Shown: piece after piece, positions 18,920 through 63,390 of the stretch
Layout: every line of letters starts with the position of its first letter
Position numbering within the stretch: the first letter of the stretch is position 1
Virus record (IMG/VR): IMGVR_UViG_3300003702_000965
Span: 19,951 to 83,950 of that record
Source of the DNA: a virus
DNA: 64,000 nt
Direction: 5' to 3' (one strand)
Position numbers and translations under genes: made by a program
The notes under the pieces: model-generated
Databases searched by the model: none
What the model was told of the DNA's origin: nothing
Seen by the model: the letters and a program-made list of their open reading frames with translations, nothing else

Positions 18920-19280
18920 ATTTTTCTAAAATCAAATATATATTATAGATAAACAGGGTCAAGATTACGACTAACGGGAAATATAGCGGCATAATGAATA
19001 CGACAGCTACGCTCATCCAAAAGGTTAAGCAAATAGGGCATGATACTAATTTTGAAAAAAAGTCATCGTTCGTAATTGACAGAAACTCAGAGTAATTTAC
19101 ACTAACTTTAGCTTGATTAACAAAATTTTCGTATTCTTCCAAGTTAAAAAGCTCTTTGATTATCCTTATTTTATCGAGCTTTAATACTTTTATATATTCA
19201 TAAAAAACATTAGTTTTAAGCCAAATTATAAGGACTAGAGAATAAACAAATGGAAGCAAGATTATAGCCCCGTTATCCAT
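18909..19280 (-). CDS. Membrane protein with CxxC motif
   Basis: Hydrophobic segments and 'LVSCPICLTFW'; start at 19280 (MDNG...) preferred to 19304 because it gives a short overlap with the upstream gene. Confidence 0.6.
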   Translation of the reverse strand: MDNGAIILLPFVYSLVLIIWLKTNVFYEYIKVLKLDKIRIIKELFNLEEYENFVNQAKVSVNYSEFLSITNDDFFSKLVSCPICLTFWMSVAVVFIMPLYFPLVVILTLFIYNIYLILEKYAR

Positions 19281-20682
19281 CTTTTGTATTGCAAAAAGAC
19301 ACAATCACATATCTTGTGCCGCTGGTGGTAGGTCTAGCTCCATGCTTATGAGTTATATTACCGGGATGCATAACCACTTCTCCAATGTCGTTTTGGACGA
19401 GTATTTTTTGCCTTCTAAAATATGTTCCGCTCCCTTCAAAATCCCTTCCACGTTGATTTAGGTTAGCTAGAAAGGTCAGCTTCGAATAGTCGTGGTGAAG
19501 CGATAGGTGCGACTGCTTGGATGGTATATATTTTATAATGAAGTTTTCCCCCGTTAAGGATGCCCAGTTTGAGCCTTCCAGCGCGTATAGAAATTCAGCG
19601 GCAGGGTAGCAGTGCTTCTTCAAAACTTGTTCATATACATTATTGATTCCCACTGTATCTAATAACATGTCAGTTGTAGGATAAAATTCATGCCTTTTCT
19701 CTGTCCACTCCCCCTCGGTTTCGCATAAATCAATCATTTCTTTACAGAAAATTTCATTGAAAAGGGGCCATTTGAAAATGTTTGAGTATCCGGGTTCTCC
19801 CAATTCATCTGCCATCAATTCCCATTCGTGGGAGCGAGCCTCTATTCTCAGGTATTTTTCTTCCCAAGCTTTTGGGTCTTTGTCGTAGTCTCTTATCGAC
19901 AAGTCTCCTTCCGTTGGCTGACCTTGTGGGCTGTCGAATCTAGATGCTATATTTCCTTTTAAGGGTTCTATTTTTTTTGTCTTGATTGGCTTAAATTCTT
20001 CGTAGCCGAAGTCTTCTTTCCCTGACTCCCCCTTTTTGGTCACCTCCTTGCTTATGGTGACGCCGGGTACTGGGGAAATGAGAGGCTGTGAAAATTTAGA
20101 CTTCTCTCCATCTGCTCTTATGAAAGCTACCAATGTTAGTCTTCCGTCATACAAATCATTACCAAAGTATTCGTCAGACTTGTGAAAGAAGAGAGGGTTG
20201 TAGATCATACATCTGTTATATACGTTTTCTACTGTTTCTCTTACGTCATACCATTTTGGATCTCCATCTGATTCTTTATATTCTTTAGACTTTTTATTTG
20301 CGCTTTCTTTTAAGTCGTAAATTATAGTGCCTGAATTGGGCTTTGGGTCAGGAGTAAGGTAAATTAAAGCAACATGAGTGAAGTCTTGATCCATCTTGTC
20401 GTCATGAACCCAGCTATCCCCGTCTTTTGAAGTACACAATTGAAACATTACCTCAAAATAAGACTCTTTACCTTGCGGCCAGCCCATAACTTCGTATATT
20501 CTCCCAGTAAACTCATAATAAAGTTTTTCGCTGAGAGTATGATAAAAAGGAGTTCTAGTTCCGGGCCAATTGCCCCCAGATGGATGAGTTTCTTTTGGAA
20601 AAAACTTCTGAGAAAGGGCGAACTTCCTTACTTTATCAGGATCTGGGAAAAAATTTTCGAATACAAGCTCTTTGTCACTCAT
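19273..20682 (-). CDS. Tandem 2OG-Fe(II) dioxygenase; C-terminal domain PLOD/lysyl-hydroxylase-like
   Basis: Two HxD...H...R sets: 'WVHDD...FHKS...RLT' and 'WPLFNEIFC...PTTD...IKY..SKQSHLSLHHD...FEGSGT...MHPGNITHKHGARPTTSGTRYVIVSF'. Confidence 0.8.
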   Translation of the reverse strand: MSDKELVFENFFPDPDKVRKFALSQKFFPKETHPSGGNWPGTRTPFYHTLSEKLYYEFTGRIYEVMGWPQGKESYFEVMFQLCTSKDGDSWVHDDKMDQDFTHVALIYLTPDPKPNSGTIIYDLKESANKKSKEYKESDGDPKWYDVRETVENVYNRCMIYNPLFFHKSDEYFGNDLYDGRLTLVAFIRADGEKSKFSQPLISPVPGVTISKEVTKKGESGKEDFGYEEFKPIKTKKIEPLKGNIASRFDSPQGQPTEGDLSIRDYDKDPKAWEEKYLRIEARSHEWELMADELGEPGYSNIFKWPLFNEIFCKEMIDLCETEGEWTEKRHEFYPTTDMLLDTVGINNVYEQVLKKHCYPAAEFLYALEGSNWASLTGENFIIKYIPSKQSHLSLHHDYSKLTFLANLNQRGRDFEGSGTYFRRQKILVQNDIGEVVMHPGNITHKHGARPTTSGTRYVIVSFCNTKDG

Positions 20683-20688
20683 GATCTG

Positions 20689-21123
20689 TTATATTTTTAC
20701 TAATTCGACACCATAAAAATCTAATATTTCTTTAGCTTTCAGGTCTTGATCATATTCTTCAGAGTATATTACTTGTGGTATTTTGTATGCAGCTATTAGC
20801 GTGGCACAGTGAGAACATGGTAATAGAGTCACGGCTAGTATACTAGCTTGACCTTTATTGAATAGAGACATACAGTTGGCTTCTGCGTGTATCATATACT
20901 TCCTTCTTTCGTCTCTGTCGAGCCAGAATTCCGCGTCCACCTTTTTTTTAGGAGCTAACCCGTTGTAACCGACTCCTAGGATCATCCTGTCTCGGTCTAA
21001 GGCGCAAGCTCCCACTTTTCTATGAGGATCTTCGCTTCTTTTAGAAGCTGTTTTAGCTATTTCAAGGGCGTATTCTTGCCAGCTAAGCCTTTCTTTAATA
21101 TCAGTTCCTAGAATATATTCCAC
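20689..21123 (-). CDS. dCMP deaminase
   Basis: 'RSEDP..KVGA', 'GYNG', 'HAE', 'PCSHC'; start moved to GTG 21123 because the listed TTG at 21165 lies in a -35 box. Confidence 0.88.
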   Translation of the reverse strand: MEYILGTDIKERLSWQEYALEIAKTASKRSEDPHRKVGACALDRDRMILGVGYNGLAPKKKVDAEFWLDRDERRKYMIHAEANCMSLFNKGQASILAVTLLPCSHCATLIAAYKIPQVIYSEEYDQDLKAKEILDFYGVELVKI

Positions 21124-21136
21124 AACAAAGGAGCTT

Positions 21137-21165
21137 ATTTTATGAATTACTTTGGCAGTGGTCAA
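21137..21165 (-). promoter_or_regulatory. Sigma70-like promoter for the dCMP deaminase operon
   Basis: TTGACC-N17-TAAAAT with AAAGTAA at spacer positions 7-13; back-to-back with the promoter at 21181. Confidence 0.7.
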
Positions 21166-23682: not shown

Positions 23683-24019
23683 ATATACATATGAGAATCC
23701 GGAGACAGGAGAAACTGTAAACGTCTTCCAAAAAATAGACGACGATCATGAATACTCAAAAGACGGACTACAATACAACAGAGTCTTCACGGTCCCTAAC
23801 GCTTCCATAGACTCGGACCTGTCCTCCCTTTCCGAAGAAGCCTTCGTTAGAGCTACGGCCAAGAAGAAAGGTACCTTGGGTGATTTATGGGATGCTTCAA
23901 AAGAAGCCAGTCTAAAGAGGGAGAAAACTTACGGGAAAGATCCCGTTAAGGAGAAATATTTCAAAAAATATAGCGAAAAAAGAAAAGGAGCTAAGCATAA
24001 AGATGACCCGTCCAGATGA
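23675..24019 (+). CDS. FmdB-like small protein lacking the zinc-ribbon cysteines
   Basis: 'MPEYTYENPETGE...RVFTVP' follows the MPxYxY pattern without CxxC. Confidence 0.5.
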   Translation: MPEYTYENPETGETVNVFQKIDDDHEYSKDGLQYNRVFTVPNASIDSDLSSLSEEAFVRATAKKKGTLGDLWDASKEASLKREKTYGKDPVKEKYFKKYSEKRKGAKHKDDPSR

Positions 24020-25022
24020 AATAACTTTCGTCGTAATATCTAACGGCAACAATCACGAAAAGCTAAAGAGGCTTTTAACAAGCATAGAGCATAACGGCGA
24101 ACACCACCTAAAGTCTTATGAAATAAACCTATGTGGCGAAGCTGGAGACTTCGAGCTTCCTGCTATTGTAAATTATTTTCATTTGCCAGAGGACGCCTCT
24201 AACGCTCGACTTGGGGACATGAGAAACGTTGGGTGCGAAAACGCGACTAAAGAAACAATTTGCATTTTAGATGACGATTTTATTTTGGCTCCTGATTGGG
24301 TAGAAAATATTCCTCATAATTATTTCGATATTATGACTTCTCAGGTTAGAGTTCCTGATGGAGGCAGATATTGGGATCACGCATGCTACATGAGTCCCAC
24401 TAAAGGTCACGTAATTCTTATGCCAGACGAAAAGGATGACTGTTTGTATATGTCTGGAGGATGCGCTTGGATGATGAAGAGGAAAGTGTGGGAAAAAGTT
24501 AAGTGGGACTCTTCTGGGATTTACAACATGAGCAGTCTGGAGGAGTACAAAGAAGGAAAGCATAATGAAGACACTCACTTTTCTTTAAGGTGTAGGGAAA
24601 ATAAGTTTTTATTAATCCATAACCACGACTCCATTTCTTTCCATGACGACGATTCCTATACTAATGTCGGCAGGATCTGCAACAGAAGAAGAGACGACAG
24701 AAGCTATTCTTGGGTTTTGGACTTGAGCTTATCTTTTTCTCCGTCAGTGTTATGCGACTTTGCTGTTTCCCTCTTTTCGAACGGCTTTCTTCCTGAATCG
24801 GCTGATATACTTAGGTATGGACTGATTAACTTTCCATCAAATTATGATCTACAAAAGACATTTGAATCCACAATAGTTAAACACTCTGGAGTTTTAGAAG
24901 ACTCTAGATACTCTCCCAATGGTGACCCTTTATATTTAGAGTTTAAGTCTTTTTATGACGACGACTCAGATGACGACTCCGAACTCGAGGGACTAACCCA
25001 AGAGCAAATGAATATCCTCTGA
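24003..25022 (+). CDS. Glycosyltransferase family 2
   Basis: 'RNVG...ICILDDD', 'NEDTHFSLR'. Confidence 0.8.
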   Translation: MTRPDEITFVVISNGNNHEKLKRLLTSIEHNGEHHLKSYEINLCGEAGDFELPAIVNYFHLPEDASNARLGDMRNVGCENATKETICILDDDFILAPDWVENIPHNYFDIMTSQVRVPDGGRYWDHACYMSPTKGHVILMPDEKDDCLYMSGGCAWMMKRKVWEKVKWDSSGIYNMSSLEEYKEGKHNEDTHFSLRCRENKFLLIHNHDSISFHDDDSYTNVGRICNRRRDDRSYSWVLDLSLSFSPSVLCDFAVSLFSNGFLPESADILRYGLINFPSNYDLQKTFESTIVKHSGVLEDSRYSPNGDPLYLEFKSFYDDDSDDDSELEGLTQEQMNIL

Positions 25023-25023
25023 T

Positions 25024-25767
25024 ATGAGAATAGGCCCAATTCAAAGTTTATGGATAGGAGACGAGCTTTCTGATTTGGAGGTTTTATGCATAAATTCCTT
25101 CTTGAAAAATGGATATGATTTTCATCTTTACACGTACGGAACTATAAAAAACGCGCCTAAAGATTGCGTCATATTAGACGGCAACGAGTTTCTAGAAGAA
25201 TCGGAGGTTTTCTCCTACAAAGTAGGAGTAGGGAAGGGCAGCTTTTCAGCCTTCTCTAACCTCTTTAGATACAAAATGCTTTATGACATTGGCGGGATCT
25301 GGTGCGACACTGACGTAATAAATTTAAATCCCATCCCGAACATGGAATATCTTTTCGCGTCAGAGAAAGATGGCGACGAAATAGTCTGCGCTTCTTGTTT
25401 CATAAAAGCTCCTAAGGGTTCTGCTTTCGCCAAGTATTGTTACGATAAGGCCTCTTCTGTAGACAGAGAGAAGCTTGAATGGGGCCAGATAGGTCCTAAG
25501 TTAGTAGGGGAAGCGGTTAAGACTTACGGTCTTAGCGACTTTATTGTTCCCTTCAAAAAATTCAACCACGTTCCTTGGTATAGCGCTGAACTCTTTTTTT
25601 ACGATGATCCAGAAAATATGGGCGAGATGCTTTATGAGAGCATAGCCAGCGAAGCGTATTGCATTCATATGTGGAACGAAGTTTGGAGAAGATTAGGTTT
25701 GGATAAGAGCGCGGAGTTTCCGAAAGGCTGTTTCTACGAGGTGTTAAAGTCCAAAATAAAAGTATGA
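25024..25767 (+). CDS. DXD glycosyltransferase (GT32/alpha-1,4-GT-like)
   Basis: 'IQSLWIG', 'FSNLFRY..LY..GGIWCDTD', 'WGQIGP', 'IHMWNE'. Confidence 0.85.
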   Translation: MRIGPIQSLWIGDELSDLEVLCINSFLKNGYDFHLYTYGTIKNAPKDCVILDGNEFLEESEVFSYKVGVGKGSFSAFSNLFRYKMLYDIGGIWCDTDVINLNPIPNMEYLFASEKDGDEIVCASCFIKAPKGSAFAKYCYDKASSVDREKLEWGQIGPKLVGEAVKTYGLSDFIVPFKKFNHVPWYSAELFFYDDPENMGEMLYESIASEAYCIHMWNEVWRRLGLDKSAEFPKGCFYEVLKSKIKV

Positions 25768-26519
25768 AGAAAATATATTTAAATGATTTCTTTCAGGAAA
25801 GTGGTTATGATTGGGAGAACGACGCACCCATGATGAAAGAAATTTGCAAGCTCAGCAAAACTAGACACATGGAAAACCCTCCGAAAGAGTTTCAATTTAC
25901 TTACGGAATGGAGCAGCCATTTTTTATCAAGGCTTTTTTGGAAAACGTATATTGTGAGAAGTTTTTTGAGATTGGAACGGGAAGGGGAACTTGTTCCATG
26001 GCGGCTTCTTTATGTAAAGACATGAGAAAGGTAGATAGTTTTGACATTCTTGTTCCGGACGAGAAGAGAGATAACGTAATAAATTTCAGAAAGGAGGAAG
26101 CGTCTAATATGGATATTCTGGAGAGATTTAGGACTAAGGCTGCTAAGATTACAAACTTCGTTGCTCAAGCGTACCCTAGTGAAATTAAATTTAATCATGT
26201 TTCAGGGTACGCGAAGTTTATTGACGACCCAGATAATAAAGACTATAGCGTCTGTTTCATAGACGGAGACCACGATAATGCTGAAACAATTTTAAAAGAC
26301 TATCTAATATGCAACAAAGTGATGGAGAAATCTAAAGAGGCTTATATTATTTGGGACGATTACTATCCAGATAAGTTCGCCGTTAAGGAAGTTGTAGATA
26401 AAATCACGGAAGTAGACGGAAGGGAGTGCACTCTAGTTCCTTTCAGAGGCCATTTATTTGATAGCGACGATAAAGCCAGAGAGGAAGACTCTGGCGAAAT
26501 AATAATGAAAATGACATGA
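25764..26519 (+). CDS. Class I SAM-dependent methyltransferase
   Basis: 'FEIGTGRG', 'FIDGDH', 'IIWDDY'. Confidence 0.85.
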   Translation: MKKIYLNDFFQESGYDWENDAPMMKEICKLSKTRHMENPPKEFQFTYGMEQPFFIKAFLENVYCEKFFEIGTGRGTCSMAASLCKDMRKVDSFDILVPDEKRDNVINFRKEEASNMDILERFRTKAAKITNFVAQAYPSEIKFNHVSGYAKFIDDPDNKDYSVCFIDGDHDNAETILKDYLICNKVMEKSKEAYIIWDDYYPDKFAVKEVVDKITEVDGRECTLVPFRGHLFDSDDKAREEDSGEIIMKMT

Positions 26520-27511
26520 AGATAGCGTATTTATGCGATAGAGACACCTATCTACATAAAATGTCTAGGGTTAGGTTTCACGGCATTCAAGCCATATCGG
26601 AAACGAATGAAGTTAAATGGCTAGGGAGAGGATGGAACAATGACGCTCAATTAGGATTTGGGTGGAACGGCTCCCTAACCGTAGACGAAAACTTTAAAAG
26701 ATTAGGTTTTTATCCTGATTTAATAATTGGATATAAACCTTTAGATATTCTAGGCTTTTGTGACTCTAAAATCAAGAAGTGCATTAGATACAATGAAATG
26801 TACGACGTAGAATGGACGATAAGAGAAATCGTCGAGAGTAACGCTGACATAGTCATTTGCCACCACCAAAATGATTATGAAGAATACGTTTCTAATTATC
26901 AAGTTTCGGAAGACCACAAAGTTGGCCTTAGTAGCGTAACTTTCGTTAACATCCCCCATTGTGCTGAAAAGACAGTTTTCAAAGACTATGGTCTCGCCAA
27001 AGAAACAGACTTACTCTTAGTTGGCGCTACCTTCGCTCAGAGTACCCTAGGTCAGCATTATCCCTTGAGAGACAGAATGGCAAGTGACATCTTACCAAAA
27101 CTTTCGCTTAAATATAATTGCAAGATATATGAGCACCCCGGATACAGCATGGGAGACGCACACACCAACATATACGCCCAAAACTTTGCGAGAGCCATAA
27201 ACTCAGCCAAAATAGCTATAACCTGTTCCGGCTTGCCCAGAAGTAGATTTGGTAAATATGTAGAAATTCCCATGTGCAGAACAGCCATTGCTGCCGACAT
27301 GCCCGGCGAAATGCAAGACTTTTTTAAGGAATTTTTAATTAACATAGACATGAGTCACTCCGACGCTCAAATAATGGCCTTGTTGGAGAATAACCTAAAA
27401 GAGCCCCACAGGATACAACAGAAGGCAGACAGAGGATATGAGATGAGCAAGAAATTCGACCAAGAATATTACGCCGAATTATTTAACGAAAAAGTCTTGA
27501 GCTTGTTATGA
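26516..27511 (+). CDS. Glycosyltransferase, CgeB-like GT-B
   Basis: 'YPLR', 'INSAKIAI', 'KYVEIPMC'. Confidence 0.7.
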   Translation: MKIAYLCDRDTYLHKMSRVRFHGIQAISETNEVKWLGRGWNNDAQLGFGWNGSLTVDENFKRLGFYPDLIIGYKPLDILGFCDSKIKKCIRYNEMYDVEWTIREIVESNADIVICHHQNDYEEYVSNYQVSEDHKVGLSSVTFVNIPHCAEKTVFKDYGLAKETDLLLVGATFAQSTLGQHYPLRDRMASDILPKLSLKYNCKIYEHPGYSMGDAHTNIYAQNFARAINSAKIAITCSGLPRSRFGKYVEIPMCRTAIAADMPGEMQDFFKEFLINIDMSHSDAQIMALLENNLKEPHRIQQKADRGYEMSKKFDQEYYAELFNEKVLSLL

Positions 27512-28434
27512 AAGTCCTACCCATTCACGGAAACGAGAACTGGCTCTGCGATAGATACGCGCAGGAGTGGAAGGATCTCAACACTTTCCACGCTTGTCCC
27601 TACAACAACTCTAATGATGCGGATGTTCTTTGGTTGCTTGCTCCTTGGGAATGGAAACAGATACCCAAAGCGTATTTAGAGACAAAGAAAGTCGTTTGCA
27701 CTATCCACCACATGGTTCCAGACAAAACCGACGAGTCTACTTGGAAAGAATTCGAAGAAAGAGATAAGTATATTGACGCTTACCATACCCCCTGCTTTCC
27801 CTCTTACGCTCAGTTCGGCCCCAGAATAGGCCACAAGCCGTTCTTAATTAATCCTTTTTGGTGCAATAATGAAATCTTTAAACCAATAGACGACAAAATT
27901 GGATTGAGGGAGAAATACGGAATAAAGCAAAAAGCCCATTTAATGGGCTCGTTCCAAAGAGACACAGAAGGCTCTGACCTCTCTTCCCCAAAACTGGAAA
28001 AAGGTCCGGATGTTTTTTGTGACATTATTGAGAAAGAGAAGGAAAAGAACCCCGACGTTGAGGTTCTATTAGCTGGATGGAGAAGGCAGTATGTTATAAA
28101 TAGATTAAACAAGGCCGGGATAAAGTATTATTATTTTGAACTACCTTCAATTAAAACGATTAATGAGCTGTATAACTGTTTGGACCTTTATGTTGTAGCT
28201 GCCAGATACGAGGGAGGGCCTCAGTCTATTCCGGAATGTATTATGACCAATACCCCCATTGTATCTACTCCCGTTGGCTTATCCAGCAAACTGCTTCACC
28301 CCAAAAGTATATTTTCCTCTTCTTCTAATTTTAATAGAGCTTCTCCTGACTTGTCTTGGGGAGAAAGAGCTATTGCGCCTTATATAATTCCAGAAGGCTT
28401 CAAACCATTCAATGATTTTTTCGATAGCTTATGA
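27508..28434 (+). CDS. Glycosyltransferase, GT4-like
   Basis: 'EKGPD', 'LYNCLDLYVVAARYEGGPQSIPEC...PIVST.VG'. Confidence 0.85.
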   Translation: MKVLPIHGNENWLCDRYAQEWKDLNTFHACPYNNSNDADVLWLLAPWEWKQIPKAYLETKKVVCTIHHMVPDKTDESTWKEFEERDKYIDAYHTPCFPSYAQFGPRIGHKPFLINPFWCNNEIFKPIDDKIGLREKYGIKQKAHLMGSFQRDTEGSDLSSPKLEKGPDVFCDIIEKEKEKNPDVEVLLAGWRRQYVINRLNKAGIKYYYFELPSIKTINELYNCLDLYVVAARYEGGPQSIPECIMTNTPIVSTPVGLSSKLLHPKSIFSSSSNFNRASPDLSWGERAIAPYIIPEGFKPFNDFFDSL

Positions 28435-29369
28435 ATTCACTTAATTTTTCCACTTTGATTAGGTGGCTGATAACTATTCAAGACTCGGGGTATCCTTGGA
28501 CTTTGCAAAAAAACCCAAAGGGGGTAGACAGGTGCCTTCTTTCGTCAGCTAGCCTTTTTTGTAAGCTCTCTAAAATTTACGAAAATTATTTTCAACCCGA
28601 CAAAGAAGAATTGAAAAAAATTATTTTATCCTTCACTAGAAAAAAGGATGGCATGCTGGAAGACATATCCGGCAAACAGAATATCATATCAGAGACGAGG
28701 CAGGCTTTTTCGGGCTTGAAAAATATAGGAGAAAAACTTCCCCCTTTTGACCCTTCTGAATATTTTCAAGAGCCTCTTTATTTTCTACAAGACGACGAGT
28801 GGGACAACCCTTGGGGCGCTGGAGCGCATCTTTCTCATTATTTGTTTTTCATGAAACAAACAGGACAAACCTCGAAAATTAGCGAGGCCTTAGATAGGAT
28901 TAAAATATATGAACACGAAGACGGCTGGTATAGAAACAAGCCCGACGATCACACTTTAGTTAATGGGATCATGAAAGTCATGACGGCTTACGACGCTGCC
29001 AAAGTAGAAATTCCCGCGAGTTTAAAGGAAACTATATTAGACTACGTTTTTAAATATGCTTGCGAAGGTGGCGGTTGTGGAATTTACGACTTCGTCTATG
29101 TTGTGGATAAATGTATGGACTTGGGGCTTCACACCGACAAATGTGAGAAATCTTTAAAGAACTGTTTTGAATTCATATTGAAGCACCAAAAGAAAGATGG
29201 AGGGTTTTCTTATAACCTTAATCAGTGTCAAACAAGCTTTTACGGTAGGCGCATAGCCGATCCGTTTGCGTGTGGGGACGTTCATGGAACGACTTTACTT
29301 AGCATGGCTTTAGTGAGAATTGATAGTGGTTTAAATTTAGATTATAATCTGTCTTTCGCGGTTACATGA
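28431..29369 (+). CDS. Hypothetical protein with prenyltransferase/squalene-cyclase-like repeat
   Basis: 'HQKKDGGFSY...DVHGT' and 'HEDGWY'. Confidence 0.45.
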   Translation: MNSLNFSTLIRWLITIQDSGYPWTLQKNPKGVDRCLLSSASLFCKLSKIYENYFQPDKEELKKIILSFTRKKDGMLEDISGKQNIISETRQAFSGLKNIGEKLPPFDPSEYFQEPLYFLQDDEWDNPWGAGAHLSHYLFFMKQTGQTSKISEALDRIKIYEHEDGWYRNKPDDHTLVNGIMKVMTAYDAAKVEIPASLKETILDYVFKYACEGGGCGIYDFVYVVDKCMDLGLHTDKCEKSLKNCFEFILKHQKKDGGFSYNLNQCQTSFYGRRIADPFACGDVHGTTLLSMALVRIDSGLNLDYNLSFAVT

Positions 29370-30142
29370 ATAAGATAGTTGGAATTTGTTTATTCAAAGA
29401 CGAAGAGATATACGCTGAAACCGTTATACATAATATAATTGACTTTTGCGACAAGATTATTATCATAGATAACAATTCCACCGACAAGACCTTCGATATA
29501 GTAAGAAAACGCTTCTCGTCTAGTCCCAAGGTGACTATGTTAAAAATGGAAGACCATTTAGCTTCGGGAAGAATGACGTATTCTTTTTTCGGATCAAAAA
29601 CTTTTCTTTTTGCGGTAGATGGTGACGAAATATACGATAGAGACGGGTTAAAAGCTATGAGACAAAGAATTAAAAATGGATTTTTCGACAAAGTTTGGAA
29701 AATCAGCGGAACCTCTTTCCACGTTAACGATGTCTCCTCTACTTGCGTTTCAGGTTTTTCCTGCCCTCCCAATAAGCATGTGACGAAACTTTACAATTTT
29801 AACGTTATAAATTCTTGGGATCAAGGCGAAAGACTACATGGGGTTGGCTTAAATCCACAGCCATATTATAAAGAGAGTCTTATTGATGTAAAATTCGCAA
29901 ATGAAAGAGGCTTGGAAGAGTCTAATCAAGTAGATTGGAGATTCTCTGAATTTAGGTGCCTGCATATGTGTTTTGTTCGAAGATCCCAACGAGACTCCGA
30001 GGATTCAAATTTTCGGTGTGAAGCTGGCTTCTATAGACCAGCCCCAATAGGGCACGATTTTAATTATAAAGCTATAAAATACGGGCTAGGGCCTACTCTA
30101 AAAATAAAAAGATCCACCTTGAAGCCTTTCCATTTGCCGTGA
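29366..30142 (+). CDS. Glycosyltransferase family 2
   Basis: 'KDEE', 'IIIDNNSTDKT', 'VDGDE'. Confidence 0.8.
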   Translation: MNKIVGICLFKDEEIYAETVIHNIIDFCDKIIIIDNNSTDKTFDIVRKRFSSSPKVTMLKMEDHLASGRMTYSFFGSKTFLFAVDGDEIYDRDGLKAMRQRIKNGFFDKVWKISGTSFHVNDVSSTCVSGFSCPPNKHVTKLYNFNVINSWDQGERLHGVGLNPQPYYKESLIDVKFANERGLEESNQVDWRFSEFRCLHMCFVRRSQRDSEDSNFRCEAGFYRPAPIGHDFNYKAIKYGLGPTLKIKRSTLKPFHLP

Positions 30143-31095
30143 TAGACGAACTCCCCAAAGATAAAACTTTCGTTTTCGGCATGTGCCCTAATAGACACTC
30201 TGCCGGAGGAGGGGGCACGAAGTTTGTTAATTATTTTAGCGAAAAGCTTGTTGGGAGAGCTTCGTTTTTTATTAACTCCAATGAGCCTGACCCTGATTAC
30301 ATTCTGCTTTTCGATCCTAGACATTTAGATTTTTCAGGCAATTGGCTTAGTCTCGATGTTCTAAAAGAGATCAAAGCTAGAGGCATAAAGAGTAAAATCA
30401 TCCACAGAATAAACGACATAGGATACCCTAAGAATAGACCACCAGAGTATGTTGACGCTGTAATAGAAATGGCTAATTTATCCGATAAGGTAATTTATGT
30501 TTCTGATTTTGTTAGAGATTATTATGGAGACAGGATAAAGACGGAGTACGAAGTCATACCAAACGGCGTAGACGAAAGGATCTTCACTTTTAAGGAATAT
30601 TCTTTTGATAAACTTAGGTTCGTTACACACCACTGGTCTTCTGATCCCATGAAAGGCAAGGTTCTATACGATTTCATAGACGAAATGTTGTCGGATTTAG
30701 AGGGGGAGGCTGAGTTCACCTATATTGGGAACCCTCCCAAGGGGTCAAATTTCAGAAGAACCAACGTGATAAAACCCCTTTACGGAGAAGAGCTGGCTAA
30801 TGAAATTAAAAAGCATAACATTTATGTTTCTGGTTCCCAGCATGAACCCTGCGGCATGCATAAACTAGAAGGAGTTGCCTGCGGACTTCCCATAATGTAC
30901 AATGTAGACAGCGGAGATTCGTACCTTACGTCAGATTATGGAGTCGGCATAGAATATAACGGTTTTCCCAAATTTGGTATTGCTTTAGCTGAAATGATGG
31001 GAAACCATAAGCGTTTTTATGATAAAATAGTTAATAATTTTGATTTATATTTAGAAAATAGATGCGTTAAGTATTTAGAATTTATAACGAAATGA
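30139..31095 (+). CDS. Glycosyltransferase, GT4-like
   Basis: 'GGG..F', 'VIPNGVD', 'SQHEPCGMHKLEGVACGLP'. Confidence 0.85.
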   Translation: MIDELPKDKTFVFGMCPNRHSAGGGGTKFVNYFSEKLVGRASFFINSNEPDPDYILLFDPRHLDFSGNWLSLDVLKEIKARGIKSKIIHRINDIGYPKNRPPEYVDAVIEMANLSDKVIYVSDFVRDYYGDRIKTEYEVIPNGVDERIFTFKEYSFDKLRFVTHHWSSDPMKGKVLYDFIDEMLSDLEGEAEFTYIGNPPKGSNFRRTNVIKPLYGEELANEIKKHNIYVSGSQHEPCGMHKLEGVACGLPIMYNVDSGDSYLTSDYGVGIEYNGFPKFGIALAEMMGNHKRFYDKIVNNFDLYLENRCVKYLEFITK

Positions 31096-32003
31096 AATAT
31101 TTAGTTACAGGAGGTTTCGGGTTCATAGGCTCCCACTTAGCCGTTAAGCTTATTAGAGACGGCCATCACGTTACAATCATAGACGACTGTTCCTCTGACA
31201 GCGTCTCATCCCCCCCTTGGCATGATAATTGTGACTTCATCAATTGCGACATCATCAACACCCAGTTCTATGAAAAATTTTTGAATGGTGTTGACGTAGT
31301 GTTTCATTTAGCCGCTAAAGCTAGGGTTCAGCCCTCTATAGCTGATCCTGTTTATTTCGATTATACCAATGTTCATGGTACAGTTAACCTATTCAAAGCG
31401 TGCGTCGACGCTGGAGTCAGAAAAATTGTTTTTAGTTCGTCCTCTTCGGTTTACGGGGACGCTGAAATGCCTACTTCAGAAAATCATCGGCTTTCCCCCC
31501 AAAGTCCTTATGGTTTACAAAAGAAGATAGGGGAGGAGTATCTCGAACTTTTCACCAAGATTTACGACATAAAGGGGGTTTCTTTGAGATATTTTAATGT
31601 TTACGGAGAAGGAATGCCCCTTGGAGGGGGTTACGCAACCGCCATTGGCATCTTTTTAAATCAAAGAAGGAATGATAAAAAAATCACCATATTTGGAGAC
31701 GGAGAACAGACTAGAGATTTTACTCATGTAAACGACGTTATCCAAGCTAATATATTAGCGGCTACGGCTACCACAGAGGGACTTGAAAATTATGAAGTTT
31801 TCAATGTGGGGAACGGGGACAATGTTAGCGTGAACGAAGTAGCTAAATTAATAGGAGGAGACATACAGTATCTAGCGCCTAAAATTGAACCCAAAGCTAC
31901 ACTTGCGGACAACTCAAAAATTAAAGAAAAACTAAAATGGGCTCCTACCGGAAATTTGCATAAATGGATCCCCGAATACAAGAAAATCGCGAACATACAA
32001 TAA
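31092..32003 (+). CDS. NAD-dependent nucleotide-sugar epimerase/dehydratase
   Basis: 'TGGFGFIGSH', 'SSSSVYG', YxxxK 'YGLQK', 'LRYFNVYG', 'GDGEQTRDF'. Confidence 0.92.
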   Translation: MKYLVTGGFGFIGSHLAVKLIRDGHHVTIIDDCSSDSVSSPPWHDNCDFINCDIINTQFYEKFLNGVDVVFHLAAKARVQPSIADPVYFDYTNVHGTVNLFKACVDAGVRKIVFSSSSSVYGDAEMPTSENHRLSPQSPYGLQKKIGEEYLELFTKIYDIKGVSLRYFNVYGEGMPLGGGYATAIGIFLNQRRNDKKITIFGDGEQTRDFTHVNDVIQANILAATATTEGLENYEVFNVGNGDNVSVNEVAKLIGGDIQYLAPKIEPKATLADNSKIKEKLKWAPTGNLHKWIPEYKKIANIQ

Positions 32004-32004
32004 A

Positions 32005-33129
32005 ATGCAAATATTAAACATAACTACAGCTAGACAAATTAGAAATAAAATGGATCCGAACGAAAAGTGTGTTGTCATCACTGGCGTCACAGGCCAAGAC
32101 GGAAGTAATATGGTTGATTATCTACTTGATACGTCTCATTCCATATGGGATAATGGCTTACATGTATACGGCGGAGCCAGAAGATTAAGCCTCGACAACC
32201 ATACAAATATTGAACATTTAAAAGATAACGAGAATTTCTCTTTAATAAACCTAGATATTACCGACACTACTTGCGTTAATAGAGTCATAAAAGATCTGCA
32301 GCCAGATTATTTTATTAATTTTGCGGCGCAAAGCTTTGTCGGGAGTAGCTGGGACCTTCCCAAGCAAACTTTCGCTGTTAACGCTACTGCTGTTTTGGAT
32401 ATGCTTGAGGCTATTAGACTCTATGCTCCTCTTTGTAGATTTTACCAAGCGGGTTCTAGCGAAGAGTTTGGAGATGTCGCCTACGCTCCACAGGACGAGA
32501 AGCATCCCTCAAGACCAGTTAGCCCTTACGGAGCCTCTAAGGTTGCCGCTAGGGCTTTAGTTAAGGTTTATAGAGACTCTTATAATCTATATGCTTGCGC
32601 TGGCTTCCTTTTTAATCACGAAGGAGTTCGTAGAGGCGAGGAATTCGTAACCAGAAAGATTACTAAGGGGGTAGCTCGGATAAAACAAGCTATGATAAAT
32701 GGGGAAAAATTCGAACCAATACAATTAGGCAACGTGAACTCCAAAAGAGATTGGTCTGATTCGGAAGATTTCGTGCACGGCGTTTGGCTTATGCTTAATC
32801 AAGATAAGCCGGGAGAATATGTTTTATCTAGCGACGAAACTCACGAAATAAAGGAGTTCGTTTCTCTAGCTTTTAACGCGGCTGGGATCGATGGACACTG
32901 GCAGGACGAAGGCATGGATGAAAAATTTGTAACTGATTTACATAATTATATTCTTTCTGAAGTCAATGAAAAGTTCTACAGGCCAGCGGAAATTGATTTG
33001 CTTTACGGAGACTCTTCCAAGGCAAGAAAAGAGCTAAAGTGGGTTCCTAGGGTGTCTTTTCCTCAGCTTGTTCGCAAAATGGTTTCTAATGATTTGAGCT
33101 TGTTGGGAATTGATGACATTTCTTCTTGA
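32005..33129 (+). CDS. gmd: GDP-mannose 4,6-dehydratase
   Basis: 'ITGVTGQDGS', 'AAQSFV', 'SPYGASK', 'FNHE..RRGEEFVTRKIT', 'KRDW', 'YRPAE'. Confidence 0.93.
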   Translation: MQILNITTARQIRNKMDPNEKCVVITGVTGQDGSNMVDYLLDTSHSIWDNGLHVYGGARRLSLDNHTNIEHLKDNENFSLINLDITDTTCVNRVIKDLQPDYFINFAAQSFVGSSWDLPKQTFAVNATAVLDMLEAIRLYAPLCRFYQAGSSEEFGDVAYAPQDEKHPSRPVSPYGASKVAARALVKVYRDSYNLYACAGFLFNHEGVRRGEEFVTRKITKGVARIKQAMINGEKFEPIQLGNVNSKRDWSDSEDFVHGVWLMLNQDKPGEYVLSSDETHEIKEFVSLAFNAAGIDGHWQDEGMDEKFVTDLHNYILSEVNEKFYRPAEIDLLYGDSSKARKELKWVPRVSFPQLVRKMVSNDLSLLGIDDISS

Positions 33130-34595: not shown

Positions 34596-34596
34596 A

Positions 34597-35046: not shown

Positions 35047-35052
35047 CATCCC

Positions 35053-37325: not shown

Positions 37326-38230
37326 TCGACAAAGTTAGAGAAGTTTTAGAGGAAATAGGATACACTAACATAAAGGATCTTGGCATGGAGTTTAGGATGA
37401 GACCCATATATCGAGATTCCGATAATGATACCGTATTAAGAGTTAAAAAGGACACAGGATTTTTCGTTGACTTTAAAGAGTCGATATCAGGTTCGTTGGA
37501 GGACCTAGTCAAAATCACTTTAAATCTAAAAGACTTAAGCGAAGCTAAGGTTTGGATGAAAGACAAAACCAACTTCCAAGTAACTCGCGCCCAGACGAAG
37601 TCCAAGCTGAAGGAGCCTAGAACTTTCCCAGAAGACACTCTTGACGCAATGGTCAAAGATCACTCTTATTGGATTTCTAGGGGCATAAGCGAAGACAATT
37701 TAAAACTATTCGGAGGAGGCGTAATCAAAACTGGTCGAATGAAAGACAGATACGTTTTTCCAATTAGAAACTACAAATCACAAATAGTAGGATTAGCGGG
37801 GAGAGATTTAATAAACAATAAAGACAACAAATTAAGACCTAAATGGAAACTCGTTGGAGATAAATCTACTTGGAGATATCCTTTCCAGTTTAACCACAGA
37901 TATATCACGAAGTCTAAACGCGTAATAGTGGTGGAGAGCATAGGCGACATGTTGGCACTATGGAGCTCTGGTGTAAAGATTACATTAGTTTCTTTTGGGT
38001 TGGATTTAAGTATACCATGCTTGAATGCTTTGCTTAAAATCGATCCTCGCAAAATATTCATTTGTTTTAATAACGATTCTTCTGGCGCTGGAGACGCAGC
38101 TTCGACTAAACTCAGAAAGAAGCTTTTAAAATATTTTGATCCAAACCAAGTAGAAATTAAGCTACCTTCTGGATATAATGACTTTGGGGAGATGTCAATA
38201 GACGAAATAAAAACATTCTTTGAATCATGA
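37322..38230 (+). CDS. DNA primase (TOPRIM, DnaG-like)
   Basis: 'RGIS', 'RYVFPI...IVGLAGR', 'VVESIGD', 'FNND..GD.A', 'NDFGE'; follows the helicase. Confidence 0.85.
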   Translation: MIDKVREVLEEIGYTNIKDLGMEFRMRPIYRDSDNDTVLRVKKDTGFFVDFKESISGSLEDLVKITLNLKDLSEAKVWMKDKTNFQVTRAQTKSKLKEPRTFPEDTLDAMVKDHSYWISRGISEDNLKLFGGGVIKTGRMKDRYVFPIRNYKSQIVGLAGRDLINNKDNKLRPKWKLVGDKSTWRYPFQFNHRYITKSKRVIVVESIGDMLALWSSGVKITLVSFGLDLSIPCLNALLKIDPRKIFICFNNDSSGAGDAASTKLRKKLLKYFDPNQVEIKLPSGYNDFGEMSIDEIKTFFES

Positions 38231-38832
38231 GTCTCTCTTTCGGGATAGAACAACAAGAGAAAGAAAAAGAGTTACTAACCTACTATTGGTTTGAAAACGG
38301 TTTTTCGCCGAGTCAATGCAAACAAATTATCGAGCTAGGAAGACGGTATCCCCGACTCGATGCCCAAGTTTTCGCGGATGATGGCGGGAAAAAAGGTGCT
38401 AGCTCCTCCGACACTAGAAATAGCACCGTAAGGTGGATAGATATATATGACCCCAGTGCGGAATGGATAATACGTGAATTGGGTCGAATGGCTATAGAAG
38501 CTAACGAGGCGTTGTTCAAATTAGATTTGTATGGTTTTACTGAAAATTTGCAGTTCACAGAATACGAAGGAAAAGGAACGCATTATAATTGGCATCCCGA
38601 TATTGGTCCCAAACAAAATAAAAGAAAGTTAAGTATAGTTATTCAGCTGAGCGACGAAAAAGATTACGATGGAGGGGAACTGATTATAAACACAGGAAAC
38701 TTAGTGACCCCGAACAAAAGACAAGGGAACGTGATATTTTTTCCATCTTTTCTACTTCATAAAGTAGAGCCTTTGAAGTCTGGGAATAGATACTCTTTAG
38801 TTTGTTGGATTAGTGGTAACGCTTGGAGATGA
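38227..38832 (+). CDS. 2OG-Fe(II) oxygenase (prolyl-hydroxylase/PKHD-like)
   Basis: 'QFTEY...HYNWHPD...RKLS..IQLS...YDGGEL...FPSFLLHKVEP..GNRYSLV.W'. Confidence 0.88.
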   Translation: MSLSFGIEQQEKEKELLTYYWFENGFSPSQCKQIIELGRRYPRLDAQVFADDGGKKGASSSDTRNSTVRWIDIYDPSAEWIIRELGRMAIEANEALFKLDLYGFTENLQFTEYEGKGTHYNWHPDIGPKQNKRKLSIVIQLSDEKDYDGGELIINTGNLVTPNKRQGNVIFFPSFLLHKVEPLKSGNRYSLVCWISGNAWR

Positions 38833-56517: not shown

Positions 56518-56740
56518 TAGCAGATTCGTTCGGGCTTTGGTGGCGAAATACGAGGCCGAGATAGAAGAAGCGAAGGCGACATTGGAGGTGTATTTCAATT
56601 CCCCAGTTGGAATTGGAGAGCATTCCGATCTCCTTACGGAACATGACAAGTGGGCCGAAAAGCTAGCTAACGCTATTGATAAACTCTCAGCTATCGAAGC
56701 ACATTTTTCGAATACGGAGAAAGGAGGTGATAATTTATAA
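56501..56740 (+). CDS. Small phage hypothetical protein
   Basis: Helical protein with 'PVGIGEHSD' motif. Confidence 0.7.
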   Translation: MKIKTNSRFVRALVAKYEAEIEEAKATLEVYFNSPVGIGEHSDLLTEHDKWAEKLANAIDKLSAIEAHFSNTEKGGDNL

Positions 56741-57363
56741 TGTTTAATCTTTTCAGAAGGTGGAGACGGTCTAGAATGGGTAAGTGCTTGTTTTGCGAGC
56801 ATGAAGCTCCTCTAAGGGACTTTTCCGAAGAATACAGAGAGGAACATGGTTCATCTTTCTCGAGCGGTGCAAAGAGAAATACGGGCAAAGGCTCAAAAGG
56901 TTCTGGTTCGAAGGGCTATGGTTCGAAGGGCTATGGTTCGAAGGGCTATGGTTCGAAGGGCTATGGTTCGAAGGGCTATGGTTCGAAAGGCTCTAGCCGA
57001 AGAAGCTATGGCACTCCGAAGAGAAAGCCTACTCCCGAACCTAAAGCTACATCAGCATATGGTGAAATGGGAACCAAAGGTTTTTCCAAAGCAACTCCTA
57101 AGAAGAAGAGACCTGTTTCCAAGCCTAGGGATACATCAACATATGATGAGATGGGGACTAAGGGCTTTTCTAATTATGACGAAATGGGAACCAAAGGTTT
57201 TTCCAAAGTAACTCCTAAGAAGAAGAGGCCTGCTCCTAAGTCTAGGAGGCGAACGCAGGCAGATGCATACGATGAAATGGGAACCAAAGGCTATGTCGAT
57301 TGGGCCGACTATAGAGGCTCAAAAGGTTATAGGCCAAAAGGCTCGGGGCCAAAAGGCGCGTAA
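56740..57363 (+). CDS. Basic low-complexity protein with GSKGY and Y(D/G)EMGTKG repeats
   Basis: Strong Shine-Dalgarno (AAGGAGGTGA) upstream; 15 Lys-Gly dipeptides, 13 of them in G-X-K-G context. Confidence 0.75.
   Translation: MFNLFRRWRRSRMGKCLFCEHEAPLRDFSEEYREEHGSSFSSGAKRNTGKGSKGSGSKGYGSKGYGSKGYGSKGYGSKGYGSKGSSRRSYGTPKRKPTPEPKATSAYGEMGTKGFSKATPKKKRPVSKPRDTSTYDEMGTKGFSNYDEMGTKGFSKVTPKKKRPAPKSRRRTQADAYDEMGTKGYVDWADYRGSKGYRPKGSGPKGA
56905..56992 (+). repeat. Coding tandem repeat GGTTCGAAGGGCTAT x5 plus a partial unit
   Basis: Five identical 15-bp units at 56905-56979. Confidence 0.95.
57064..57227 (+). repeat. 47-bp coding duplication (57064-57110 and 57181-57227)
   Basis: One mismatch; shorter copy at 57274. 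Confidence 0.85.
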
Positions 57364-57408: not shown

Positions 57409-57438
57409 CTGGGGCATAGTGTCCCAGTTCGCTTTTTT
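57409..57438 (+). terminator. Probable terminator after a run of small hairpins
   Basis: CTGGGGCA/TGTCCCAG stem then TTCGCTTTTTT. Confidence 0.55.
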
Positions 57439-61524: not shown

Positions 61525-61601
61525 GCCCCGATAGCTCAATTGGATAGAGCATCTGCCTTCTAAGCAGGGGGTTACAGGTTCGATCCCTGTTCGGGGTACC
61601 A
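61525..61601 (+). tRNA. tRNA-Arg(UCU) with encoded CCA
   Basis: Acceptor GCCCCGA/TCGGGGT, D-arm GCTC/GAGC, anticodon loop CTTCTAA, T-loop GGTTCGATCC, 3' ACCA. Confidence 0.95.
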
Positions 61602-61625
61602 ATTTTTTTAGTTACGAACAGAAAA

Positions 61626-62423
61626 ATGAAATATATTAATAAACTTTTATTGTTGTCGGCGATAGCACTGCCACCGATTTTTCCACACGCAGAAACGATG
61701 ACGCCGTCATCAATGATCGAAAAATATGAGGGCTTGCTCATGCAAATGTCCAAGGCGACGCCTGACATATATTATCTTCTTTTACGAGGGGAAACATATG
61801 AGGAGAAAATCGAAGATAGAGAGAAGCTAAATGATAAAGATTTTACTTTGGCTATACAAGAGACGGAAGGTAGACGGATTTACGAACTAAGAGCAAGGAA
61901 TGGGGCTCTTTCCCACATGGCGATAGACAGCCTCAATGGCCAGATAGAATTAAGGAAATTAAACCTAGCCGGAAATAGAACAATCGACGACGAAGCATGC
62001 AAAAAAATCGCCGCGTATCTTCCTCGATTACAATCCTTGAATTTGTATGGGACTAGCGTTTCGGATAAGGGATTGATCTATCTCCTTGATTTGCGAGAAC
62101 TTAGGTCGCTACATGTTTTCGACACCAAGGTGACTTGGAACGGCGCAAATGAGTTTAGAGCGAAGATGGAATCAATTTCGGGTAACGATGATTTAGAAAT
62201 CACGGTAGGCCACGGAACCCCACCTCTTGGCAGCATTAAACACGGAGCGTTTTTAAGGGCAACCTATCAAAAGAACGTCGAACTAGGGAGATTAGATCCT
62301 AATTACATTGACAAGTACCCCTTGGCCAAAGCGGAGACCAGTGACGAGAAAAAATATGAGGAAGATTTGAAAAATGAAGCTGTAGAACCTATATTTAAGG
62401 AAGAAGATAATGAAGTCCCCTAA
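61626..62423 (+). CDS. Secreted leucine-rich-repeat protein
   Basis: Signal peptide; 'LRKLNLAGN..IDD', 'LQSLNLYGTSVSDKGL', 'LRSLHVFDTKVT..G'. Confidence 0.8.
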   Translation: MKYINKLLLLSAIALPPIFPHAETMTPSSMIEKYEGLLMQMSKATPDIYYLLLRGETYEEKIEDREKLNDKDFTLAIQETEGRRIYELRARNGALSHMAIDSLNGQIELRKLNLAGNRTIDDEACKKIAAYLPRLQSLNLYGTSVSDKGLIYLLDLRELRSLHVFDTKVTWNGANEFRAKMESISGNDDLEITVGHGTPPLGSIKHGAFLRATYQKNVELGRLDPNYIDKYPLAKAETSDEKKYEEDLKNEAVEPIFKEEDNEVP

Positions 62424-62607
62424 AAAAGAGCTTCCCCTTGACGACCTCTTTCTGCAAATAACCAAATGGAGGGTAGAAGCAGCGAGCTCTCATAATGACG
62501 GGTGGACTCGGCAACACTACCAAAGAATGCTGGACGAAGTTAAACGGGACTTAAACAAATCCTTACGAGAGATAGAAGAGGCGGAAATGTTGGATAATTA
62601 TGACTAA
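62410..62607 (+). CDS. Hypothetical protein
   Basis: Overlapping gene chain. Confidence 0.65.
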   Translation: MKSPKKELPLDDLFLQITKWRVEAASSHNDGWTRQHYQRMLDEVKRDLNKSLREIEEAEMLDNYD

Positions 62608-62671
62608 AAGAAAAAATTACGACATTCTTCCCGAGCCCGTCGAAGAAGATTATATTGTTTGGTTTTGGTGA
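62600..62671 (+). CDS. Possible 23-aa peptide coupling into the GT25 gene
   Basis: MTKRKNYDILPEPVEEDYIVWFW*; stop overlaps the next ATG (TGATG). Confidence 0.4.
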   Translation: MTKRKNYDILPEPVEEDYIVWFW

Positions 62672-63390
62672 TGGAAGTGTTGAACTTCAGGACCTTGCTG
62701 GGAAAACCTAGTGAAACAGTTGTAATATCTCTAAAAGAAAGATCCGACAGGAGGGAAATCTTCGATTCCAAATGGAAGAATTTATGTAAATATAGGTATT
62801 ATTTAGCCGAAAGAATGACAAAGGAGAAGGCTGGAGCCTTTCTCAAAAACTTCAACGGACACGATTTTCCGGATAATGTAGATGAAGGGACACCCTCTAG
62901 ATGGGGGTGTTTTTTGTCTCATTTTGATTGTATTGTTTCGGCTAAATCTAGAAATCTTGATTCCATTCTCATATTAGAGGACGATGCAGCGCCTAATTTA
63001 GATCTTCTTGAAGAGGAGTTTGTTTTGCCTCCCGATTGGGATGTAATTTATTTGGGGGCAGATGGGCCAGACGTACTTTGTGAATTTTCCACAAAAAATA
63101 TAAGATCAGACTTAACTTGGATAGATGACGATGTTAGATTTAACTTCTCCGGTTGGAAGAAAATTAAAACTTGGGGAACTTGGGCGATGCTCATAAGAAA
63201 CACCGTCTATGATAGCTTAATATCTGAGCTGCATTCATTTACGTTTTGTAAGGAGGACATAGACTCTTTAAGATTAGACGGAGTTTATTATCATTATCTC
63301 TGGAAAAAGTTCAGTTTCTACTACAAAGATGATTTTGTTTTGCATGATTACGACGCCAAATCTGACATAAAACATGTTGGAAATAACTAG
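62671..63390 (+). CDS. Glycosyltransferase family 25
   Basis: 'VISLKERSDRR', 'GCFLSH', 'ILILEDDA', 'DWDVIYLG'. Confidence 0.85.
   Translation: MEVLNFRTLLGKPSETVVISLKERSDRREIFDSKWKNLCKYRYYLAERMTKEKAGAFLKNFNGHDFPDNVDEGTPSRWGCFLSHFDCIVSAKSRNLDSILILEDDAAPNLDLLEEEFVLPPDWDVIYLGADGPDVLCEFSTKNIRSDLTWIDDDVRFNFSGWKKIKTWGTWAMLIRNTVYDSLISELHSFTFCKEDIDSLRLDGVYYHYLWKKFSFYYKDDFVLHDYDAKSDIKHVGNN

Follow-up and report, generated by a model that had tools for sequence, protein, structure and literature searches.

The DNA described here is a stretch of 64,000 nucleotides (hereafter the window; coordinates refer to it unless the contig is named), which corresponds to bases 19951-83950 of a linear viral contig of 83,950 nt, IMG/VR record IMGVR_UViG_3300003702_000965. 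Near-identical DNA occurs in the seawater and hydrothermal-vent metagenomes of several independent studies, and the contig therefore represents a real, recurrent marine phage. An initial annotation of the window pointed to three genes, namely a dioxygenase resembling the PLOD lysyl hydroxylases (LH), an enzyme of glycosyltransferase (GT) family GT25 and a protein with many Lys-Gly repeats, and proposed that the first two may hydroxylate and glycosylate lysines of the third. Here we report a computational analysis of these genes, their relatives and the remainder of the contig. This deep-sea phage probably carries a dispersed version of the pathway by which animals and mimivirus hydroxylate and glycosylate collagen lysines, with a collagen-like tail fibre, encoded before the window, as the presumed substrate.

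Features of the locus

The open reading frames (ORFs) and domains on which the argument depends are as follows.

19273..20682, minus strand: two-domain dioxygenase (DUF6445 plus PLOD-type lysyl hydroxylase), ORF of 469 aa
20083..20682, minus strand: DUF6445 (Pfam PF20043), a second oxygenase domain of the double-stranded beta-helix (DSBH), 2-oxoglutarate (2OG)/Fe(II) type
19909..20082, minus strand: disordered linker rich in P, K and E, residues about 200-258, with pLDDT <50 at 212-242 and 250-258
19273..19908, minus strand: LH domain, residues about 259-469, with LH3/L230 similarity and invariant ligands
38227..38832, plus strand: P4H-type 2OG oxygenase, 201 aa, PF13640 with E 1e-15
56740..57363, plus strand: basic, disordered GSKGY/EMGTKGF repeat protein, a possible secondary substrate, with 15 KG, 13 G-X-K-G and an isoelectric point (pI) of 10.2
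62671..63390, plus strand: stand-alone GT25, candidate hydroxylysine glycosyltransferase, 239 aa, PF01755
contig 1-2400, some 17.5 kb upstream of the window: collagen-like tail fibre, ORF of 799 aa, 5'-truncated by the contig start

The two-domain dioxygenase

In Pfam the 469-aa ORF matches DUF6445 (PF20043) at residues 6-188 (E 1e-10) and 2OG-FeII_Oxy at residues 381-465. In a search of all PDB sequences residues 269-465 matched human LH3 (6fxk, 6teu, 8one, 8zgc) at E 4e-26 and the lysyl hydroxylase domain of mimivirus L230 (6ax6) at E 4e-24; beyond PLOD/L230 no family fell under E 0.3 and the next match stood at E 0.36. The motifs LHHDxS and HPGNITHKHGARPTTSGTRYVIVSF match LH3 in every alignment column, and LHHDxS and HPGNITHKHGARPTTSGTRY correspond to its metal and 2OG ligands. 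The Fe(II) triad H396-x-D398 and H447 and the 2OG-binding R457 align with the HHD, HYH and GTRY columns of LH3, and these four residues are unchanged across nine full-length homologues. The AlphaFold model (pLDDT 86.5) shows two well-folded domains and a disordered linker. For this model Foldseek ranks 6ax6_B (L230) first (TM 0.92, root-mean-square deviation 1.5 A over 211 columns), followed by LH3; L230 and LH3 account for the 15 best matches, and OGFOD1/Tpa1 and PHD2 come far behind. As judged from sequence and model, the C-terminal half is a genuine PLOD/L230-type LH domain with intact HxD...H...R, for which activity on lysine is predicted. The PLOD pattern recognized at the outset is borne out by these matches; in sequence as in fold the enzyme therefore groups with PLOD/L230 and not with the prolyl or nucleic-acid hydroxylases, the grouping that the initial annotation had named as speaking against its proposal.

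The glycosyltransferase domain that precedes the LH domain in LH1-3 and L230 is not present. DUF6445 is the N-terminal domain instead and thus occupies the place of the glycosyltransferase carried by other LH proteins. It is itself a DSBH fold (model pLDDT 91) in which H93-x-D95...H167 is invariant and R181 nearly invariant among 46 homologues, and in fold it comes closest (E about 1e-6, TM 0.55-0.63) to protein prolyl hydroxylases, namely PHD2 and bacterial enzymes of the P4H type. The family comprises 1303 representative clusters at E <1e-3, which are mostly stand-alone; in many DUF6445 follows GT2, or GT2 plus tetratricopeptide repeats (TPR), in a fusion (P0146, P0155, P0161, P0204, P0220). 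PHROG 1644 matches DUF6445 at E 3e-27 and bears the label 'minor coat protein', which is probably a mis-annotation. No paper on DUF6445 was found in the literature searched.

A protein search delivered eight full-length DUF6445-LH homologues with 58-61% identity. No prophage or host copy was detected in a scan of genome contigs with the DUF6445-LH alignment. The scan of viral contigs gave no loci with the 469-aa protein as single query and two loci with alignment-derived patterns, which are too degenerate. NCBIfam contains no match for the LH, GT25 or GSKGY protein.

The lysyl hydroxylase family in other phages

More than 200 clusters share only the LH domain with the present protein, at 42-52% identity. 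The partners fused to its N-terminus are GT25 (about 455 aa in total), GT4 (about 560-610 aa) or GT4 plus GT25 (about 790-820 aa), and fusions to GT25 and/or GT4 occur in more than 100 uncultured phage contigs; among the matches listed, 76 of the 110 homologue clusters lacking DUF6445 carry GT25. An unrooted tree built from 164 LH domains shows the DUF6445-LH proteins as monophyletic (support 98); its main split (support 99) groups them with GT25-LH and separates them from the forms that contain GT4.

The back-translated motif HPGNITHKHG located at least 119 loci in IMG/VR. A collagen ORF was counted from 25 triplets upwards, and upstream neighbours were scored at loci where the upstream DNA extends over 2.5 kb or more. 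Among the matches listed a collagen ORF precedes LH at 52 of 60 testable loci and follows it at 0 of 95. All upstream collagen ORFs (59/59) are on the strand of LH and keep a stereotyped spacing, either about 0.65 kb or about 1.9 kb. The 11,860 triplets at the listed LH loci have lysine at Y in 2763 cases and at X in 65. The order of the cassette is a giant collagen gene, a PF13640 oxygenase of about 200 aa, GT2 in one class, GT4-(GT25)-LH and then a tail sheath gene.

Five long LH contigs (118-187 kb) encode the T4 gp23 capsid protein and no capsid protein of the nucleocytoplasmic large DNA viruses (NCLDV), and are therefore T4-like phages; on the same grounds the possibility that the LH-bearing contigs of 170-187 kb belong to algal giant viruses was ruled out. 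When 50,697 deposited phage genomes were searched by tblastn with the LH domain, the only matches were partial ones below 27% identity, to 2OG oxygenases of cyanophages and roseophages, and no cultured phage with this LH family was found among these genomes. The literature searched contained neither a paper on PLOD-type hydroxylases or hydroxylysine in bacteriophages nor a description of the T4-like collagen-PF13640-(GT2)-GT4-(GT25)-LH cassette.

The collagen-like fibre and the scattered cassette

The truncated fibre ORF has matches to Pfam Collagen (E 1.5e-42) and to tail-fibre families of PHROG, and a Peptidase_S74 chaperone domain forms its C-terminus. Among its 152 Gly-X-Y triplets the Y position holds T in 59, K in 43 and Q in 42, with lysine at X once; proline occurs 34 times at X and never (0) at Y. 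Segments such as GPKGQKG and GAKGQKG present the textbook PLOD context X-Lys-Gly. G-X-K-G occurs 43 times in the fibre, 13 times in the GSKGY protein and at most once in any other ORF of the whole contig. The specificity of PLOD enzymes covers X-Lys-Gly and the telopeptide (PMC9546862).

The 201-aa PF13640 oxygenase of the window is homologous over its full length (37% identity, E 4e-45) to the oxygenase L041:4699-5301, which lies directly downstream of a collagen gene of 1417 aa. With collagen, PF13640 oxygenase, LH and GT25 present, the phage therefore has every component of the cassette, scattered over the genome. The neighbourhood of the LH gene is a nucleotide-metabolism module, in which it stands between dCMP deaminase and ribonucleotide reductase (RNR). 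DUF6445 and the PF13640 enzyme are intact, protein-hydroxylase-like oxygenases whose targets may be other residues of the fibre; proline at the X position would be a guess for DUF6445.

Two syntenic relatives carry an LH gene. Contig L003 is collinear with the present contig over 29-51 kb and has a DUF6445-LH gene at the same place. The syntenic contig G001 (59 kb) encodes a 431-aa GT25-LH fusion with intact ligands, situated between homologues of window 35053-35469 and DnaB, and starts with a collagen-like ORF of 1453 aa (127 triplets, 37 with K at Y).

The GT25 enzyme

The product of 62671..63390 reaches 34 bits against PF01755 Glyco_transf_25 (cut-off 24) over residues 16-107, and the assignment to GT25 made from the window is upheld. 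The ATG at 62671 is the start used in homologues (MEVLNF...). The E-D-D (DXD) motif E103, D104, D105 is invariant in five homologues, with LILEDD aligned to LVFEDD of COLGALT1. Compared by hhalign with the GT25 domain of the GT25-LH fusions, the protein shows full-length homology (98.8%, E 7e-17, residues 12-226). A profile of the GT25 clade searched against PDB, with a reference set lacking LgtB/Lic2B, gives COLGALT1 as best match (E 2.5e-8, 37 bits), followed by R655 (23.5 bits) and the 251-aa 8xc8 (20.8 bits).

Upstream of the gene are a tRNA-Arg and a leucine-rich-repeat (LRR) gene; a gene of prepilin type lies between it and the contig end. An assignment of the GT25, LRR and prepilin genes to host DNA flanking the tRNA was ruled out, as homologues are embedded amid phage genes in relatives. 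In contigs L164-L174 a GT25 gene 70-78% identical to the present one follows a dCMP deaminase homologue and precedes a homologue of window 14814-15359, with a module equivalent to window 55-61.5 kb upstream of it. Every one of the nearest clusters in the ESM Atlas is a viral GT25, and in the seawater run X5 the GT25 region is covered at phage depth. GT25 is a phage gene and not host DNA. The reservation attached to it initially, that it might be an ordinary lipooligosaccharide (LOS) enzyme or stem from the host, is largely removed by the phage genes flanking it in relatives; the acceptor, as the fusions suggest, would be hydroxylysine.

In the present phage window 14814-21165 reads dCMP deaminase, DUF6445-LH, three small ORFs, RNR and then the gene 14814-15359. 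Both orders start beside dCMP deaminase, and GT25 and LH therefore hold corresponding slots in different genomes.

In one alternative reading the LH modifies the fibre and GT25 is unrelated to it, acting together with the glycosyltransferase cluster on another acceptor such as a glycan of the LOS or lipopolysaccharide (LPS) type, a phage polysaccharide or a protein. Family GT25 also holds LOS and LPS enzymes, including LOS galactosyltransferases, and its Pfam name is 'LPS biosynthesis protein'; the GT25 and LH genes lie 42 kb apart, the phage owns a complete range of further sugar enzymes that hints at a glycan pathway of its own, and no LH is seen on contigs L164-L174, which have GT25. These contigs are, however, too short to show that LH is absent, and the profile puts COLGALT1 (37 bits) over the bacterial-size 8xc8 (21 bits). 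Moreover, GT25-LH is the commonest LH architecture among the matches listed and recurs in the syntenic relative G001, and the present LH domain belongs to the GT25-associated branch of the tree. We regard an unrelated GT25 as unlikely.

The Lys-Gly repeat protein

The initial annotation saw in 56740..57363 a possible dedicated, non-collagen substrate of the system. Its counts of 15 Lys-Gly and 13 G-X-K-G are correct, and compare with means of 4.8 and 0.75 and maxima of 13 and 6 in 10,000 composition-preserving shuffles; much of the KG excess comes from tandem amplification of units that bear KG. The units have period 5 (GSKGY) or are longer (EMGTKGF), and the protein is therefore not of the Gly-X-Y type, in agreement with the first description and with the lack of a Pfam Collagen match. 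A 121-aa ORF in an alternative frame (56846-57211) was rejected as the same tandem repeat read out of frame.

No homologue was found among 5.8 billion protein clusters, and the back-translated N-terminal motif had no match in IMG/VR. Positional orthologues exist in L166 (2475-3368, 298 aa) and L174 (2378-3058, 227 aa); they share a 47-residue N-terminus, MGKCLxCEHEAPxRDF, at 59% identity and have tails with different KG-bearing repeats (GSGAK, SSKG; 16 KG). The orthologue in L176 (4515-4832) has an N-terminus of the same type, followed by a lysine-free, collagen-like Gly-X-Thr repeat. These genes form a small family with a conserved Cys-x2-Cys N-terminus and a hypervariable Gly-rich repeat tail that differs by phage. 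In a natural population (run X1) an in-frame insertion of 15 nt behind 57331 adds one PKGS unit, and a terminator-like hairpin lies 3' of the gene at 57409-57427. From the orthologues, the variation of the repeat and the hairpin, GSKGY is therefore a real, fast-evolving gene. With a pLDDT of 0.38 in the Atlas model the protein is predicted to be disordered, which would give a hydroxylase access to it; it also has SPKK-like TPKKKRP motifs.

That LH and GT25 glycosylate hydroxylysine on this protein, as the main substrate or beside the fibre, is distinctly unlikely in our judgement. Besides the collagen it is the sole ORF of the contig with more than one G-X-K-G, at least four independent units (GSKGY, EMGTKGF, GSGAK, SSKG) in it and its L166 and L174 orthologues all bring K-G, the variant gains its unit in frame, and disorder would leave the lysines exposed. 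Against this stand the failure to find homologues in the searches named above, the absence of the gene from L183 and from the 59-kb G001 contig, which has GT25-LH, the lysine-free repeat of L176, and a KG excess that is mostly a by-product of tandem amplification. The TPKKKRP motifs and the pI of 10.2 suit a nucleic-acid-binding or internal protein equally well. The LH family tracks collagens (52 of 60 loci upstream and 0 of 95 downstream in the listed matches), and other LH loci show no such KG-rich non-collagen ORF. From the absence in G001 and L183, the lysine-free L176 and the tie of the family to collagens, GSKGY is at best a secondary substrate; as the main one it is improbable, with a collagen fibre of 43 G-X-K-G outside the window. 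It may be an additional substrate, and the enzymes can be explained without it. That the phage uses the PLOD-type hydroxylase, perhaps with the fused DUF6445, and GT25 to hydroxylate and glycosylate, besides the fibre, a non-collagen, disordered Lys-Gly protein of a 'mucin-like' or adhesive kind, with a repeat number varying between natural populations, we consider distinctly unlikely; if true, no natural substrate of the PLOD family that is neither collagen nor triple-helical would precede it outside animals, and it would be paired with a new architecture of two oxygenases.

Proposed pathway

In the reading favoured here, with the fibre as substrate, the PLOD-type domain would use Fe(II), 2-oxoglutarate and O2 to hydroxylate Y-position lysines in the G-X-K-G sites of the fibre. 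This step is placed before formation of the triple helix; PLOD enzymes need unfolded X-K-G. The hydroxyl thus formed would then receive a hexose from a UDP-sugar through the stand-alone GT25, in the manner of COLGALT1, as the domain fusions in relatives suggest. Of the system proposed initially, the PLOD grouping and a strong link between LH and GT25 (a fused GT25 in 76 of the 110 listed clusters, and in G001) are supported; the dedicated repeat protein is unlikely to be the main substrate.

Several observations weigh against this pathway. The fibre is assigned as the LH substrate by genomic association, and 37 kb separate the LH gene from that of the collagen, which is on the opposite strand; with this distance, the strand and the nucleotide-metabolism module around it, the tight adjacency of the T4-like type is therefore missing. 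The three genes singled out at first are likewise unlinked, as had been noted. The partner of LH is DUF6445 and not a glycosyltransferase. The Pfam match of GT25 is limited to its N-terminal half, its single-sequence matches in PDB are weak (E 0.03-0.1), and the family includes the LOS and LPS enzymes mentioned above. A stand-alone GT25 and LH are seen together in this one contig only, the relatives being fragments, and the contig itself has the CheckV completeness of about 55%. On balance we consider a dispersed phage pathway of collagen lysine hydroxylation and glycosylation the probable explanation.

An action of the dioxygenase on a nucleotide, a nucleic-acid base or a free amino acid rather than on protein lysine would suit the flanking dCMP deaminase and RNR genes and the nucleic-acid modifiers known among phage 2OG oxygenases (PMC2938197), but is highly improbable given a C-terminal domain that is exclusively PLOD/L230 by sequence and fold, a family fused to glycosyltransferases and linked to collagens, and a DUF6445 fold nearest to protein prolyl hydroxylases and elsewhere fused to GT2 plus TPR.

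Glycan cluster and further genes

The remaining features of the window are listed below.

24003..31095, plus strand: glycosyltransferase cluster with GT2, GT32-like DXD enzyme, methyltransferase, GT4, GT2, GT4 and unassigned ORFs (Pfam)
31092..33129, plus strand: NAD-dependent epimerase/reductase (PF01370, E 2e-57) and GDP-mannose 4,6-dehydratase (PF16363, E 2e-105)
8741-9508, 15491-17461, 33498-38230, 42601-45204: PhoH, ribonucleotide reductase, RecA-like, dUTPase, DnaB helicase, primase, DNA polymerase
61525-61601: tRNA-Arg(TCT), just before the LRR gene
61626-62423, plus strand: LRR gene, with a homologue also in relative L170

The large glycan cluster pointed out from the window is real, extends over 24003-33129 and contains Pfam-assigned enzymes. 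The epimerase/reductase and the dehydratase, which are conserved in relative G001, are predicted from their sequences to supply a GDP-6-deoxyhexose. Speculatively, the cluster might have a role in extending the hydroxylysine glycan, and the other glycosyltransferases of the phage and the GDP-sugar enzymes might extend or decorate it.

Outside the main cluster lie an FkbM-type methyltransferase (39826-40566), a weak sulfotransferase-like ORF (41918-42622), a NodU/CmcH-type carbamoyltransferase (45212-47044) and a 641-aa protein with DUF4214 and a match to a PHROG glycosyltransferase (48429-50354). The large ORFs 602-8716 and 9508-14350 have no match in PHROG. On the plus strand at 57666-57998 a 110-aa protein matches the beta-domain of mechanosensitive channels; it is 78-82% identical in relatives L166, L174 and L183, with two copies in L183.

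The contig ends with a prepilin-type gene (N_methyl, PVC-style) at 63424-64000 on the plus strand. Relative L183 (70 kb) has two prepilin paralogues (86% and 45% identity) amid phage genes at 12176-14133. The gene points to a phage-borne pseudopilin and a host resembling Planctomycetota/Verrucomicrobiota. Contigs with 90-95% identity to the LRR region reach 20-100 times the depth of the remaining phage DNA in the seawater run X5; a close homologue of the LRR gene is carried by an abundant organism, which may be the host.

Comparison with known systems

Hydroxylysine with O-linked sugars is regarded as a hallmark of animal collagen, to which mimivirus is the one viral exception (PMC9546862). 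The mimivirus genome codes for collagen-like proteins, together with an enzyme of family GT25 and a P4H-type oxygenase (PMC9546862). The LH domain of its L230, a bifunctional lysyl hydroxylase/hydroxylysine glucosyltransferase (6ax6, 9nev), is 30% identical to the present one and, with R655 (GT25), R699 and L593, mimivirus resembles this phage in having virus-borne LH, collagen, GT25 and P4H-type oxygenase. The two differ in that the host is a bacterium and not an amoeba, that LH is fused to DUF6445 and not to a glycosyltransferase, and that the presumed substrate is a tail fibre with Peptidase_S74.

With human LH3/PLOD3 and COLGALT1/GLT25D1 (6fxk, 8zgc, 9evj) the phage enzymes share HxD...H...R in the LH domain, E-D-D in GT25 and the context X-Lys-Gly within Gly-X-Y. 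Unlike LH3, the phage LH polypeptide has no GT-A domains and no endoplasmic reticulum context, and whereas COLGALT1 has two domains the phage GT25 is a single domain of 239 aa.

The marine T4-like cassette has the same LH family (42-52% identity), a collagen with lysine at Y and a homologous PF13640 oxygenase. In the present phage, unlike in that cassette, the genes occupy both strands and a span of more than 80 kb, LH is joined to DUF6445, GT25 stands alone and the relatives belong to a different lineage.

The protein prolyl hydroxylases OGFOD1/Tpa1 (4nhy, 3mgu) also combine two DSBH domains in one chain and are the next-best fold for the whole chain (E about 1e-9). In these proteins the N-terminal domain alone is catalytic, whereas both phage domains keep HxD...H...R, and the likeness is limited to the fold and does not extend to the sequence.

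Implications

The comparative evidence indicates that many tailed phages of the ocean carry this enzyme family beside collagen-like fibres. The present phage illustrates that the pathway can be dismantled and rebuilt, with the hydroxylase joined to another oxygenase and GT25 set free, and it offers an initial clue to the function of the uncharacterised DUF6445, as an oxygenase that modifies proteins and is tied to glycosylation. If the proposed pathway holds, it would provide small, bacteria-compatible lysyl hydroxylases and hydroxylysine glycosyltransferases for the production of modified recombinant collagen in E. coli, a need that has been stated explicitly (PMC9546862). It would further place the origin or the spread of PLOD- and COLGALT-type enzymes in the world of phages and bacteria, and would alter the view of phage fibre chemistry and receptor binding.

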